Positions 55,536 to 59,474 of a DNA stretch of 64,000 nt are shown one piece after another; position 1 is the first letter of the stretch; the number at the start of each line of letters is the position of its first letter. The notes under the pieces were generated by a model. The model worked only from the letters and a program-made list of their open reading frames with translations, did not search any database and was not told where the DNA came from. A program made the position numbers and the translations under genes. The stretch spans positions 2,048,001-2,112,000 of the forward strand of contig CBDFIJ010000004.1 in the NCBI GenBank assembly GCA_965248055.1, in the 5' to 3' direction. The stretch comes from Candidatus Multivoradales bacterium (GTDB lineage: Bacteria; Acidobacteriota; Thermoanaerobaculia; Multivoradales; JAHEKO01).

Positions 55536-56063
55536 TTGGGCTTCGATCGAAATATAAGGCAGGTAGAGCAACGAGCCTCTGAAGCTTCGTTAGCTATTCT
55601 TGTTTGGGGCCCCGGCAGAGACGATGCTGCACTCTACGTGAAGCGAGAGAAAATCAAGGATAGGTTAGCGACTGAGTTTCCTAACGTAGAAATTCGTTTT
55701 AGCGAAGACCAGGAACTCGACAAGATGATTCAGGGGTCAGCACATTTGAGCGTTCCAGAGAAGGAGATCTACCATCTTGCAGCATGCGATGTCTGTGTTG
55801 TCTTGGATGCATCGAAGGGGGCCGGTGAGGAGATCGCCTTATTTTCACTCTCTCGTCTCTCAGAGAAGTTCTTCATACTTACGCATGAGCAGTACAGGGA
55901 TGTCGACAGCTTCCCTGCTCAGCTGCGGAAATACCATAACCAAGTGTTCTACACTGACGAAGAGTTCGTGTCTTGCAACATGGTAGAGAGGGTGGTCACG
56001 CATGTCCGAATTGAGGCAACGCGAAGGCTGTTCTTTGCTCCGGCTAAATCTAACCCAGCGTAG
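55536..56063 (+). CDS. Nucleoside 2-deoxyribosyltransferase/N-glycosidase-like protein (retron-effector-like)
   Basis: ILVWGPG...KREKI...FSED...E..HLAACDVCVVL.ASKGAGEEIALFS...KFFIL...SF, with SxGxxxE carrying the putative catalytic Glu. Confidence 0.65.
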   Translation: MGFDRNIRQVEQRASEASLAILVWGPGRDDAALYVKREKIKDRLATEFPNVEIRFSEDQELDKMIQGSAHLSVPEKEIYHLAACDVCVVLDASKGAGEEIALFSLSRLSEKFFILTHEQYRDVDSFPAQLRKYHNQVFYTDEEFVSCNMVERVVTHVRIEATRRLFFAPAKSNPA

Positions 56064-56092
56064 CCCTTCATATAACGAGCTGGCTTCAGACA

Positions 56093-56123
56093 TAGGTACC
56101 ACCCTTGTTTCGAGGGGACGGTG
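56093..56123. repeat. 31-bp repeat, copy 1 (REP-like family)
   Basis: TAGGTACCACCCTTGTTTCGAGGGGACGGTG, identical at 58358-58388. Confidence 0.85.
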
Positions 56124-56374
56124 TGCCTCTCGTTGTGCCTGGGCCCAGACTGTGGAGCCAGTCATCGCGATGCAAGGCAACTGAGGGCTGGAGTTCTTGT
56201 TTCTGGATTTCATGGCCTACCTCGTTTCGTTCTCTACGAGGGGTCCCAGGAGTAGAGATAGGTGCGTAGAGATAGGTGCCAGATGAGATGAGTCGGTCGG
56301 TCTCCAAGCTGGGACAATGTGCCAGTTTGGATCAACCAAAGAAATCGGCATCTAGCCGAGAAAGGAGACCGACC

Positions 56375-57388
56375 ATGGAGTATCTTGGCATTGACGTTCA
56401 CTCAAAGTACAGCGAGGTATGTGGGATATCTCAGGAGGGTGAGGTGACGGTTCGTCGTCGGATTTCGACGACGGAGACGTCGATCCGTGGGTTCTTCGGT
56501 TCTCGTGAGCGTGCACAAGTGACGCTGGAGAGCGGTCCGGTGACGCCGTGGGTATATCGGTTGCTGTGTGATCTAGGTCATGCGGTAACGGTAGTCAATC
56601 CCCGGCGAGTGCGTTTGATTGCCGAATCGACACTAAAGACCGACGGCATTGATGCCGAGGTTTTAGCTCGGCTGAGCCGATTAGACCTGGGGTTTCTGCG
56701 TCCGGTGTATCAGCGAAGCCCTGAGGCCCAGGAGCTTCGCACTCGTTTACGGGTGCGATCGGCTCTGGTTAAGTCTCGGACTTCGTTGATCAACGCGGTA
56801 CGTGGGACTCTGCGTGCTCAGGGCTACCGGATGCCTTCGTGTGCGGCCAAGATTTTCATGGTGCGTTACGAATCGATGGGATTCGATTCGGGAGTATCAG
56901 AGGCCCTGGCTCCCTTGGTATCGACGATCGGTGAGCTGTCGGATCGGATCTGTGAGCTAGAGAATGACCTGAAAGCTCAAGCAAGTACCGATGAGCTTCT
57001 CGTTCGTCTGCAGACAGTGCCCGGGGTAGGGCCTCTGGTGAGCTTGGCTTTTGCCGGCTGGGTAGACAATCCAGATCGGTTTCAAAAGAGTCGAGATGTT
57101 GGAGCATGCCTGGGCTTGAGGCCCTCGCTTCGCAGCTCAGGAGGGCATGAGATCCGTGGCCGGATCACTCGGGAGGGGGATAGCGAGATGCGCCGACTCC
57201 TGGTCCAGGCTGCGCATGCATCTTTACAGTGTCACAAGGACTCAGCGCTCAAGCGCTGGGGTGAGGGTTTGGTGGCAAGGCTAGGTAAGAGCAAAGCAGT
57301 GGTAGCGCTGGCTAGAAAGATCGGAGTCCTACTGCATAGGTTGTGGGTCACAAACGAGAATTTCCAGCCGTTTCCACAAGCCACATAA
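56375..57388 (+). CDS. IS110 family transposase/recombinase
   Basis: RBS AAAGGAG; DEDD motifs GIDVHS, LESG, KTDGIDA; TVPGVG, GLRP...SSGG (catalytic Ser) and AVVALARK. Confidence 0.95.
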   Translation: MEYLGIDVHSKYSEVCGISQEGEVTVRRRISTTETSIRGFFGSRERAQVTLESGPVTPWVYRLLCDLGHAVTVVNPRRVRLIAESTLKTDGIDAEVLARLSRLDLGFLRPVYQRSPEAQELRTRLRVRSALVKSRTSLINAVRGTLRAQGYRMPSCAAKIFMVRYESMGFDSGVSEALAPLVSTIGELSDRICELENDLKAQASTDELLVRLQTVPGVGPLVSLAFAGWVDNPDRFQKSRDVGACLGLRPSLRSSGGHEIRGRITREGDSEMRRLLVQAAHASLQCHKDSALKRWGEGLVARLGKSKAVVALARKIGVLLHRLWVTNENFQPFPQAT

Positions 57389-57452
57389 GCGAGGATTCGA
57401 AGTAAGAAAGCAAGAGAAATCAGTCATGAGTTTCAAAGGACGGATGAAAAGT

Positions 57453-57595
57453 TTCGATGACTCCGATAAATGGGTTGGAGGCTGGGACTCCGCGTGCCAG
57501 ATGGGAGCATCGAATTTCCTCAACAGACGGAAAACTCACCATGCACCGGTCCAAAGACGGACCCAAGAGAGTGCGAATAGAAGCTCGTCCTGAGG
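57453..57595 (+). ncRNA. Predicted bridge RNA/seekRNA core (target- and donor-binding loops)
   Basis: Two stem-internal-loop-stem units whose loops carry GGGTT plus GTGCCAGA (flank matches) and CTCA plus ATAGA (IS-end matches); transcript ends unknown. Confidence 0.75.
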
Positions 57596-57749
57596 TTAGA
57601 TCCGAATCTAAAGAACGCATGATCGATGGAAAGAAAACCCTTGACTGGACCGCCCGACTCATAGAACCCTCTTTTTCGAGGAGAGATGTTCGCTGGCGTG
57701 GTCAGTCAGGCCTTTATCAAGGAGAAAGGAGATTCGTAGTGGGTAACGT

Positions 57750-58045
57750 ATGAACGGGGTGTTCCGTAGCAGTAAGTTCCTGGACTTCAACTCCGGGGAT
57801 GTGTTCTTGCCACCAATGCAGTTCATTCAACAAAAGCAGAAGCCGTGGACTCTCACGGACAAGATCGAAATCTTCGAATGTAGAGTGGAAGTCTGGCAGC
57901 TTGGTGTTGCCGTGCAGGTGCTAAAGGAGATGGAGGATGATCGGGAGGGGAAGCAAGACATTTGGTGTCATGCTGCCTATGGGCTCATCGCGATTGTCTT
58001 CTCGTACTTCGAAATGATCGGTAAGATCGTAAATCCAACCTCTAA
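57750..58045 (+). pseudogene. Hypothetical gene truncated by an IS5-like insertion
   Basis: ORF 57750-58073 runs into the IS end; its last residues (SLLKNPTT) are IS-derived. Confidence 0.55.
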
Positions 58046-58220
58046 GAGCTTGCTGAAAAACCCCACCACCTGACCATAACGATTCTATAATTGGGAATAG
58101 GAGGTTTTGATGCGTGGATCGGATCAAGGTGAGGGATCAATGTTCAGCTACGTTGACCTGGAACGGCGAATTCCTCGGTCTCATCCGTTGCGGCGGATCC
58201 GAAGTTTGATGGACGAGGAC
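58046..58220 (+). mobile_element. IS5-family remnant (left end plus transposase N-terminus)
   Basis: CTAA then GAGCTTGCTGAAAAA end, RBS AGGAGG, MRGSDQGEGSMFSYVDLERRIPRSHPLRRI; breaks off at a repeat at 58221. Confidence 0.75.
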
Positions 58221-58357
58221 ATAGGTACCACCCTCTTTTTTCTTTTTTTTGAACTTCAGATCATGAAACCTGATTTATCTCTTGACCCAACCCAAGTACG
58301 AGTCCTCGGTGCGCGGACTCATGTGGCGTAACCGGGCTATACGGGCACGGGCGCCGC

Positions 58358-58586: not shown

Positions 58587-59474
58587 CTATACGGGCACAA
58601 ATGGCCTGGGTGGTGGGAAGGACCCAGGAGGGAAGGCGGCGGTGAGGTTGCCAGCTTTCAACCGAGCGCAGGCTTCACGATATGCCAGGACGAACCACGA
58701 GTAGGCTTCATAGAGGATCCTGCGCATCGCCTTGCTGGCGCAGTGAAACATGGGTGCTGGTCGGCGCTTGAGCTTGCTCGGTCGGTATGTAGGGTCCAGG
58801 TCGGGAATCTCTGAACGCTCTATGAACGGATTGTCCTGTTGCACAATCTGGATCAGCTCCTGTATTCGTTGAGCAATCCACTTTGGATTGCGATCGGCCC
58901 AGCAGGGAAGGGGAGTTAGGAAGACTCGTTCCCTGGTACGAAAGACCAAGCCACTGTCCAACCCGCGAGCATGAAACTCTCGGGTCCTGTCTCTCCAGTG
59001 GCCTTCGACGGTCGACTTGCGGCGCAGCAACGTCTCTACGCTCTGAACTCCAGGCCAATCAACTGGATGGGCAACCAGCCTTTCTTTGACGCCCTGGCTG
59101 AGTATGTATTTCATTCGCTCTTCTTGCGCTGCTTGTTCTTCACTGATGACGATGGCTTGGTATCTCCTAGACCAAAATTTGTCCGTCCAATTGTGCAGTC
59201 TGCCGAGTTCGCGGGCCAAGTTTCCGTTGAGATGGTTCATGAACTTGGCCATTTGCTCGGAGTCAGCCACCGAGATCAACAGGTGGTAGTGATTGGACAT
59301 GAAGGCAAACGCGTGGATTTCCACCGGATACTTCCTTTGTGCTCGCCCTAGGACACCTCGAATGATGTCGTTGGCCAGGGGCGAAGGCTTGAGGAGAAAG
59401 CGACCTTGGATGGTACGGCATGTGACCTCCACCAAGGCGCCTCCGGGCGGGATGAATCGAAGTCGTCTGCTCAT
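58587..59474 (-). CDS. Y1 HUH transposase, REP-associated tyrosine transposase (RAYT)-like
   Basis: VTCRT..GRFLL, HAFAFMSNHYHLL (HUH), FWSRRY, YILSQGVKERLV..P.DWPG and FPPGSFPP. Confidence 0.88.
   Translation of the reverse strand: MSRRLRFIPPGGALVEVTCRTIQGRFLLKPSPLANDIIRGVLGRAQRKYPVEIHAFAFMSNHYHLLISVADSEQMAKFMNHLNGNLARELGRLHNWTDKFWSRRYQAIVISEEQAAQEERMKYILSQGVKERLVAHPVDWPGVQSVETLLRRKSTVEGHWRDRTREFHARGLDSGLVFRTRERVFLTPLPCWADRNPKWIAQRIQELIQIVQQDNPFIERSEIPDLDPTYRPSKLKRRPAPMFHCASKAMRRILYEAYSWFVLAYREACARLKAGNLTAAFPPGSFPPPRPFVPV

Follow-up and report, generated by a model that had tools for sequence, protein, structure and literature searches.

The window analysed here, a stretch of 64,000 nucleotides from Candidatus Multivoradales bacterium (Acidobacteriota), was found to contain an insertion sequence of 1385 bp. 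The 277-nt non-coding region at its 3′ end very probably encodes a bispecific guide RNA of ∼164 nt, which would read the target DNA with one loop and the ends of the element with the other, within the mechanism set out below. This reading is based on the anatomy of the element, on compensatory changes in the RNA stems, and on guide sequences that vary together with flanking DNA and element ends among relatives.

Bridge or seek RNAs have already been established for the IS1111 group (Durrant 2024, PMC11208160; Siddiquee 2024, PMC11187229), and bridge RNAs were predicted in 93.0% of the catalogued IS1111 elements (PMC11208160). The element in the window is an ordinary, well-supported member of this family, which leaves the established picture of IS1111 bridge RNAs unchanged and would not surprise a specialist. 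It provides an IS1111-type case that can be read clearly, in a lineage that has received little study, and RNA-guided IS110/IS1111 recombinases are under development as programmable DNA-insertion tools.

Anatomy and copies of the insertion sequence

The following features were assigned to the element and its flanks.

56281..57665, + strand: insertion sequence, AGATGAG...CATAGA, 1385 bp, its extent set by copy boundaries and by relatives with empty sites
56276..56280, + strand: left target half-site GTGCC in the flanking DNA, identical to the 5′ part of the 3′ guide in loop 1
56288..56302, + strand: left subterminal inverted repeat ATGAGTCGGTCGGTC, agreeing at 14 of 15 positions with the reverse complement of 57648–57662
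56375..57388, + strand: transposase/recombinase gene, 337 aa, with AAGGAG in front, identified by Pfam, NCBIfam, alignment to IS621 and motifs
57648..57662, + strand: right subterminal inverted repeat GACCGCCCGACTCAT, pairing with the left repeat
57666..57669, + strand: right target half-site ACCC, its A being the shared nucleotide, assigned from the right flanks of this IS type

The transposase matched the two IS110-family domains of Pfam, PF01548 (79.2 bits) and PF02371 (71.1 bits), as well as NCBIfam NF033542, 'IS110 family RNA-guided transposase' (236.9 bits, cut-off 140), and could be aligned to the solved IS621 recombinase chain 8wt6_A (E 2.4e-10). Its motifs were GID (D7), E52, KTDGIDA (D90, D93) and GLRPSLRSSG (247–256, with S255-G256). 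The protein thus has the N-terminal DEDD/RuvC-like domain (PF01548) and the C-terminal PF02371 with a catalytic serine by which the IS110 family was defined here. As given in section 6 of PMC11187229 and in PMC11208160, the IS1111 group is distinguished by transposases of 330–350 aa with a GL-P----S(t)G motif (PMC11187229, section 6), by subterminal inverted repeats of ∼7–17 bp with short terminal extensions, and by a longer non-coding region downstream of tnp. The present transposase has 337 aa and carries GLRPSLRSSG at 247–256; 9 of the 14 matching repeat positions are contiguous, AGATGAG and AGA form the left and right terminal extensions, and 94 nt of non-coding DNA upstream of tnp (56281–56374) stand against 277 nt downstream (57389–57665). 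Judged by these features, 56281–57665 is a member of the IS1111 group of the IS110 family.

The junctions read GTGCC/AGATGAG on the left (56276–56287) and CATAGA/ACCC on the right (57660–57669), and the first A of the element (56281) is interchangeable with the A at 57666, which makes it the shared nucleotide. The genome itself (3.4 Mb, 4 contigs) has three full copies with 99.9–100% identity, namely the window copy, L002 and L003. As the window copy shares 1.87 kb of right flank with L002, these two do not represent independent insertions. A truncated copy (L004) ends at the equivalent of 57535, where it abuts a different multi-copy repeat. Right-end fragments of the same sequence type start at the equivalents of 57538 (L005) and 57560 (L006), and two more right-end fragments (L007 and L008) are ∼83% identical. 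The left junction of this IS type was GTGCC in 4/4 cases in the genome, and the right flank was ACCC (L001/L002, L006) or AGCC (L003, L005). In Logan contigs from four runs of one sample, the unitig covering 56276–57666 had a depth of ∼4x that of the flanks, and neither joints nor the circle junction nor the empty site were found among these contigs. A search of genome contigs for relatives yielded only copies in G024, a genome in the same family as that of the window, and remote matches at ≤35% identity.

Structure of the predicted RNA

Three structural features were placed in the region downstream of tnp.

57441..57604, + strand: predicted long bridge/seek RNA, ∼164 nt, closing stem CGGAU 57441–57445/AUCCG 57600–57604, from the RNAalifold consensus
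57453..57514, + strand: target-binding stem-loop (loop 1), outer stem 57453–57464/57504–57514, apical hairpin 57477–57491, from folding and covariation
57518..57595, + strand: donor-binding stem-loop (loop 2), outer stem 57518–57529/57586–57595, inner stem 57542–57546/57571–57575, apical hairpin 57547–57564, from folding and covariation

The preliminary description of this DNA had proposed two stem-loop units, and all of their stems were found where it had placed them. In the first unit, TTCGATG(A)CTCC (57453–57464) pairs with GGAGCATCGAA (57504–57514) and GGAG (57477–57480) with CTCC (57488–57491); in the second, CCTCA (57518–57522) pairs with TGAGG (57591–57595), GACG (57526–57529) with CGTC (57586–57589), and GCAC (57543–57546) with GTGC (57571–57574). 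Both stem-loops were recovered by the MFE fold of 57389–57669 and by the centroid of 57440–57600. The MFE energies were no better than those of shuffled sequences (z = 0.06 and −1.41), single-sequence folding being uninformative here.

The alignment of close relatives comprised seven sequences with 75–100% protein identity: the window, two G024 types and the metagenome contigs L084–L087. L092, whose RNA is the same as that of L084, and L083, which is without most of the region, were left out. RNAalifold predicted 40 pairs from these seven sequences, 6 of them with compensatory changes, and in the consensus a closing stem encloses two stem-loops of similar design, in both of which a large internal loop is topped by an apical hairpin. 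A covariance model was built from this alignment after dropping 3 predicted pairs inside the loops. When 25 sources were searched, it detected the RNA at 18 places, including L011, L130, L012, L095, L096 and L131 with only 36–49% protein identity; at E ≤ 0.01 there was no match in 7 of the 25 (L093, L015, L094, L120, L071, L117 and L125), and the loops of L093 were read by eye.

The model-based alignment had 17 distinct rows, 4 of which were fragments. As it was fitted to the model, it favours the structure, and the relatives are not phylogenetically independent; with this bias, 93.4% of the pair cells held standard pairs, compared with 30–45% when the partners were slid by 1–3 columns. Compensatory changes were observed in 26 of the 37 pairs (helix 1, 6/6; helix 2, 8/10; helix 3, 2/5; helix 4, 4/5; helix 5, 2/6; helix 6, 4/5), and 0 of 500 shuffles matched any of the observed structure measures. 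The structural margin is large despite the model-fitted alignment and the related sequences. A covariance model of homologous right ends, which had been suggested earlier as a check, gave the structure strong covariation support. All four proposed guide segments lie in internal loops of this structure. The architecture of loop 2 is of the same internal-loop type as that of loop 1, and is kept down to 36% protein identity. An Rfam scan of 55800–58300 matched no family; a sub-threshold match to Acido-Lenti-1 (17.6 bits vs 37, E 0.64) lay within the tnp gene.

Variation of the target loop with the flanking DNA

Loop 1 holds two guide segments.

57466..57476, + strand: top-strand (right-target) guide, core GGGUU 57472–57476 pairing A/ACCC 57665–57669, defined from right flanks of relatives
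57494..57503, + strand: bottom-strand (left-target) guide GUGCCAGAUG, identical to the left junction 56276–56285, from identity and covariation

It had been noted that GTGCCAGA at 57494–57501 equals the left junction. The match was confirmed, but it had been given too short: it extends over 10 nt (GTGCCAGATG, 57494–57503). A match of at least 10 nt to the 30-nt left junction was present in 82 of 20000 random 247-nt genome windows, some of these being other IS copies, which corresponds to a chance probability of ∼0.004. GGGTT (5 nt), CTCA (4 nt) and ATAGAAG (7 nt) were each at chance level when taken alone, since the commonest longest chance match was 6 nt, and GGGTT was tied by an unrelated 5-mer in the single-copy comparison. 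The significance of these three segments therefore comes from the relatives only.

GGGTT was found at 57472–57476 as described, and in close relatives the homologous segment pairs with 8–10 nt of the right flanks. The loop-1 sequences change along with the flanks, the left flank being GTGCC, GTGAC or GTTCC, in agreement with the earlier proposal. In G024 there are 2 type A copies (81% aa identity) and 15 type B copies (79%, one right-truncated). The type A guides equal those of the window; the flanks are GTGCC...AGCCTTTCC at L010 and GTTCC...ACCCTTTTC at L017, where the right flank is perfectly complementary to its loop over 10 nt. Type B has the guides GUAUCCUU and GUGACAGAUG at the same loop positions, and its left flanks were GGTGAC in 15/15 and its right flanks AGGATAC in 13/14 and AGGATGC in 1/14. 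L087 carries GAAGUGGGUU and GUUCCAGAUG with the flanks GGTTCC and ACCCACTTC, and L084 carries GAAGCCUCUU with the flank AGAGGCTTC. The guide of L084 recurs in L092 and L085 with the flank AGAGGTTTC, giving a G-T wobble. L083 has the guides GUAACCUU and GUGACAGAU and the left flank GGTGAC, its right flank being missing; the flank AGGTTAC of L008, in the genome of the window, fits the L083 guide.

In a pairing matrix of 17 sites and 7 guides, into which 6 of the 14 type B right flanks were entered, chosen as distinct, the mean contiguous guide–flank pairing was 6.9 for cognate combinations (n = 20) and 1.9 for non-cognate ones (n = 99). The guide of the window was weakest at the right flank, with 4–5 contiguous pairs at ACCC and 1 at AGCC; with wobble and interruptions allowed, 8–9 of 11 positions paired. 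Among distant relatives, the left match was 12 nt in L131 and L012, 9 nt in L093 and 7 nt in L130, and imperfect in L011, L095 and L096. On the right, L130, L093 and L096 match over 6 nt, and L131, L095, L011 and L012 have a weak match or none. Read from the 5′ end, the top-strand match precedes the bottom-strand match, as reported for IS1111 seekRNAs; in the IS110 type the order is the reverse (PMC11187229).

Natural retargeting can thus be seen among the sequences of the relatives: six guide variants at 75–83% protein identity form a series, each with a matching site. The series includes 17 unoccupied 13-nt targets in G024, and its occupied/empty pairs fix the crossover to 1–2 nt. With three near-identical copies and the catalytic motifs in place, it is plausible that the element is intact and programmable, as had been proposed, the programmability of the RNA in the window being putative.

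Crossover and shared nucleotides

The 13-mer GGTGACAGGATAC joins the left and right flanks of type B through a single A. It had 17 occurrences in G024 and 2 in G013, against 0 for its reversed control. Empty sites in G024 share an extended flank consensus with occupied sites. Comparison of the occupied L023 with the empty L049 showed 94% identity for the left flank and 100% for the right, the two flanks being adjacent at 1506/1507 of L049; the left flank of the occupied L035 matched the empty locus L046. From the empty sites of this relative and the occupied/empty pairs it follows that the element is AGATGAG...CATAGA, with one A shared with the target. Where the right half-site starts with G, as in most site types, target and element share AG, judging from these sequences.

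The preliminary description had left the core undecided between A and AGA. The former was retained, with AG at most sites. AGA as a 3-nt duplicated core was rejected on the empty sites of the relative, as GGTGACAGAAGGATAC had 0 sites in G024 and G013, compared with 17 in G024 for GGTGACAGGATAC.

For the type in the window, the crossover was assigned by homology and by the enriched motif GTGCCA(C/G)CCGAA, which is indirect evidence (14 occurrences in the genome vs 1 in the reversed control). The shorter GTGCCA(C/G)CC was not enriched there (113 vs 98), and the empty-site pattern GTGCCAGAA[CG]CC had only two occurrences. The same-genus genome G001 offered no orthologous empty site for the window copy, because its flanks aligned at 66–74% and not up to the junctions.

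Several properties of the guides follow from the shared A. AUAGAAG of loop 2 equals the predicted circle junction ATAGA-A-G, and it continues into the G of AG-type targets. GUGCCAGAUG fits the recombined left junction over 10 nt, and the naive target over only 6–7 nt. The last U of GGGUU pairs with the terminal A of the element.

Variation of the donor loop with the element ends

The two guide segments of loop 2 were both defined by covariation.

57535..57540, + strand: donor 5′ guide CUCACC, pairing with left-end GATGAG 56282–56287 with one mismatch
57577..57583, + strand: donor 3′ guide AUAGAAG, composed of ATAGA, the shared A and G, as in the predicted circle junction

CTCA at 57535–57538 had been taken as the reverse complement of the left-end TGAG. 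Its place was correct, and the segment is better extended to CUCACC, which has one conserved mismatch. ATAGAAG was found at 57577–57583 as noted, and it follows the right ends in relatives. The ends are identical among close relatives, so the donor loop could be tested informatively in distant relatives only.

After the shared A, the left end is GATGAG in the window, its six close types and L093, GATGGG in L011, L130, L095/L096 and L012, and GATGGA in L131. The 5′ segment of loop 2 is CUCA.. in the GATGAG set and CCCA.. in the others, with 13/13 element types concordant; thus U or C at position 2 of the guide tracks A or G of the left end. The right end is CATAGA in the window, in the five close types having a right end, and in L011, L131 and L093; it is CATGGA in L130 and L012, and CACAGA in L095/L096. 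The 3′ segment, being AUAGA, AUGGA or ACAGA, matches these right ends in 12/12 element types. L129 (G189) was also concordant at the donor loop, and was left out of the counts.

L012 served as a prediction test in which the RNA was read first. The prediction held for its left flank and for both of its ends. It failed for the right flank, where, at a contig end, the element borders on part of a second copy of its own non-coding region. The donor 5′ segment forms only 4–5 pairs and has a C-A mismatch in most members, with a perfect complement in L093 and L012. The second loop thus matches and covaries with the element ends, the matches being short and one mismatch conserved. For IS1111 elements, this gives sequence-level support to a second RNA loop that reads the element's own ends, a point left open in the experimental IS1111 study (PMC11187229).

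Predicted promoter and proposed mechanism

57641..57646, + strand: TTGACT, −35-like hexamer of the predicted junction promoter, followed by a 17-nt spacer and then GA + AGAT across the circle junction

The TTGACT hexamer was confirmed inside the right end, 19 nt from the end, and TTGAC is conserved 19–20 nt from the right end in the relatives compared. A consensus scan of the linear element revealed no sigma-70-like promoter, and no terminator-like site was found on the + strand. For ISEc11, the junction promoter was proposed to drive tnp and the co-transcribed long RNA (PMC11187229, sections 8 and 14). Transcription of the present element would probably start at the circle-junction promoter (TTGACT, 17 nt, GAAGAT) and run through tnp into the RNA. 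The predicted length of ∼164 nt is inside the 145–170 nt reported for long seekRNAs (PMC11187229).

We infer that the RNA is produced from a working junction promoter and bound by the recombinase, and that the strands are cut at the shared positions. In loop 1, GUGCCA(G) repeats the top strand of the left half-site and would thus pair with its bottom strand; at the right half-site, GGGU(U) would pair with the top strand. In loop 2, which would read the joined ends, CUCACC would pair with the left end GATGAG, and AUAGAAG reproduces the right end together with the shared nucleotide(s). The RNA-loaded DEDD/serine recombinase would then synapse the circle (CATAGA-A-GATGAG) with a GTGCC-A-(C/G)CC site, and strand exchange would take place at the shared A or AG.

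Alternative explanations

Stem-loop 1 could be the sole guide, as in a short seekRNA, with stem-loop 2 acting in scaffolding or processing and the protein reading the ends through the subterminal inverted repeats. For ISEc11, transposition was obtained with the 82-nt short seekRNA on its own, and no definite role was assigned to the long form (PMC11187229, sections 10 and 14). Moreover, the donor matches are short (4–7 nt), the 5′ one with its conserved mismatch, and the 14/15 inverted repeat at the ends is readable by a protein. However, the two loop-2 positions agree with the ends in all types compared (13/13 and 12/12), the right end occurring in three states, and loop 2 shares the internal-loop architecture of loop 1 even at 36% protein identity. 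Donor loops were also predicted in IS1111 elements by Durrant et al. (PMC11208160). We consider a single-guide RNA improbable, and prefer the bispecific RNA.

It is slightly less probable still that the element and its RNA gene are relics, which would be recognisable and no longer mobile in this genome. The absence of a circle junction and of an empty-site joint from the assembled contigs of the four runs, the promoterless linear copy, and the truncated or fragmentary state of L004–L008 would fit a relic. Yet rare circles are not visible in contigs, and a missing internal promoter is normal for IS1111 elements (PMC11187229, section 8); three full copies, 99.9–100% identical, are present at different sites, with an open reading frame and its catalytic motifs. 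Coincidental stems and matches, or another role of the hairpins as a transcription terminator or an mRNA-stability hairpin after tnp, would agree with the unremarkable folding energy and with the chance-level of 3/4 matches in the single copy. This is very hard to maintain against the low chance probability of the 10-mer (∼0.004), the loops that follow flanks and ends in relatives, and the stems that keep pairing via compensatory changes; a terminator is further disfavoured by the lack of a + strand terminator-like site.

Comparison with known systems

The seekRNA elements ISEc11, ISPa11, ISKpn4 and ISPst6 (PMC11187229) resemble the element in the window in their DEDD transposase of ∼340 aa with GL-P----SG, their subterminal inverted repeats and the long non-coding DNA that follows tnp. 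Their long RNA has 145–170 nt, and its top- and bottom-strand matches have the same order and overlap at the insertion point, as here. Close relatives of these elements were retargeted naturally by loop changes, like those in the group of the window, and they have no internal promoter, one being formed at the circle junction, where it is predicted here (PMC11187229). The differences are the host (an uncultured member of Ca. Multivoradales, Acidobacteriota) and the targets. Furthermore, the donor-reading loop in the window is backed by covariation, whereas the role of the long form was left open in PMC11187229; conversely, the IS1111 seekRNAs were demonstrated experimentally (PMC11187229), and the RNA in the window is known from sequence alone.

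The IS621 bridge RNA is likewise bispecific, and its target loop and donor loop both read the two strands flanking a short shared core (PMC11208160); its recombinase is homologous to the present one (8wt6_A, E 2.4e-10), with low protein similarity. In contrast to IS621, in which the RNA lies 5′ of the gene, the RNA in the window lies 3′, the order of the guide segments is reversed, and the element has long subterminal inverted repeats. Target and element share A or AG here, compared with a CT core in IS621. The left-target guide in the window runs 4 nt into the left end (GAUG), which is not described for IS621 in the available parts of PMC11208160 and PMC11208158. The junction-fitting extensions in the window, namely the extra U of GGGUU and AUAGAAG, resemble the handshake guides of IS621 (Hiraizumi et al. 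2024, PMC11208158); by analogy, these product-fitting extensions may act as handshake guides.

ISPpu9 with its small RNA Ssr9 (Pares-Guillen et al. 2025, PMC12288879) resembles the genome of the window in that the RNA-containing right part also occurs alone, without tnp (here L005–L008). Circles with the small-RNA gene alone were reported for ISPpu9, and Ssr9 was reported not to be required for transposition (PMC12288879). Circles of the solo pieces were not observed in the data of the present genome. Unlike the ISPpu9 modules, these solo pieces are without the 5′ half of the target loop or more, and they may be in-situ deletions between two copies of the 10-mer.

Right-end fragments and tandem duplications

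The DNA encoding the left guide duplicates the left junction within the element over 10 nt: the left half-site is followed by the shared A and by 4 nt from the start of the left end. L007 (GTGCCAGATG) and L008 (GTGACAGATG) begin exactly at this guide 10-mer, right after target-like left flanks, and continue through the 3′ portion of the RNA region into the right end. They could have originated either by deletion between the left junction and the internal 10-mer, or from a right-hand module mobilised from the internal site.

Perfect tandem duplications of 9–16 nt were observed to abut the junction in 6 of the 23 distinct flanks examined: the left flank of the window, both flanks of L084, the right flank of L092, the left flank of L086 and the right flank of L131. 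A tandem repeat of this size was present in 28 of 20000 random 60-nt windows of the genome. These repeats may belong to repeat-rich targets and not be made by the element, because similar repeats are found near some empty sites in G024. A tentative and rather unlikely explanation is that the internal 10-mer is an alternative recombination site yielding right-end modules with the donor loop only, and that the half-site duplications are footprints of strand exchange. In that case, both the internal-site modules and the half-site duplications would be natural side reactions of bridge recombination.

Sequence surroundings of the insertion sequence

Inspection of the DNA immediately to the right of the IS1111-type insertion sequence (IS, window 56281-57665) revealed a duplication: 1.87 kb, from window 57666 to ~59530, recurred together with the IS at another locus, L002, with 99.9% identity. 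The duplicated segment contained a transposase ORF:

58587-59474, minus strand, IS200-like Y1 transposase ORF (PF01797, E 1e-11), within the duplicated 1.87 kb

The IS may border a further unit that is itself mobile or repeated. Two short stretches, at window 56089-56123 and 58040-58200, showed a contig depth 4-16x that of their surroundings in the Logan contigs, with several loose ends there. A string translating as GTTLVSRGRC was found on both sides of the IS, at ~56096 on the left and at ~58310 on the right. These flanking sequences look like small high-copy repeats.

Within the transposase coding region, an Rfam match to Acido-Lenti-1 was observed at window 57241-57262. It scored 17.6 bits versus the gathering score of 37 (E 0.64), and this sub-threshold match was most likely due to chance.

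Partial copies and end remnants

Two right-part remnants of the element, with ~83% identity to its right part, were found in the window's own genome (G000):

L007:1501-1668 (G000:C4:2189021-2189188), remnant without transposase
G000:C4:2181140-2181311, reverse strand, L008 remnant without transposase

Both remnants started exactly with the 10-mer of the left-target guide (the loop-1 3' segment that is identical to the left junction), being GTGCCAGATG in L007 and GTGACAGATG in L008, and in both cases a target-like left flank immediately preceded the 10-mer. The right flank of L008 was AGGTTAC, in agreement with the guide of L083, a relative from a metagenome. The right end of L007 looks like an inverted left end.

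A solitary left junction was observed on the minus strand at G000:C4:3186114, where GTGCC plus AGATGAGATGAGTCG was followed by unrelated sequence; this is a left-end remnant without the rest of the element. The fourth IS copy, L004 (L004:2761-3113; G000:C4:806097 onward), was truncated at the position corresponding to 57535, which lies in the donor loop. The break point adjoined a different repeat with at least 12 copies, of which a 57-nt terminal piece showed 100% identity and a 296-nt piece 93-97%. Judged by its translation, the ORF next to the break resembles the C-terminal part of an rve-type transposase. In L012 (reverse strand), a 36%-identical relative whose right end lies at the contig start of G030:C38, the right end ran straight into part of the element's 3' non-coding region, present here for a second time. 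This doubling may reflect tandem or nested elements, or it may have arisen in the assembly, since the contig terminates here.

Repeats at junctions and target sites

Of 23 distinct flanks, 6 carried perfect tandem duplications of half-site DNA, with units of 9-16 nt, that abutted the junction with the IS; the background was 28 in 20000 random 60-nt windows. The duplications were located as follows:

window 56253-56280, junction-abutting tandem duplication
flanks of L084, L086, L092 and L131 (metagenome or distant relatives), junction-abutting tandem duplications

Comparable tandem repeats were also present beside some empty (unoccupied) sites in G024, a genome of the same family with type A and type B relatives of the element. 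The 13-nt type B target, GGTGACAGGATAC, occurred 17 times in G024 (loci L036-L054), often as inverted pairs with 45-80 bp spacing and inside a GAATTC...ATATTTC consensus. The type B target thus looks like a family of REP-like repeats used as the landing site.
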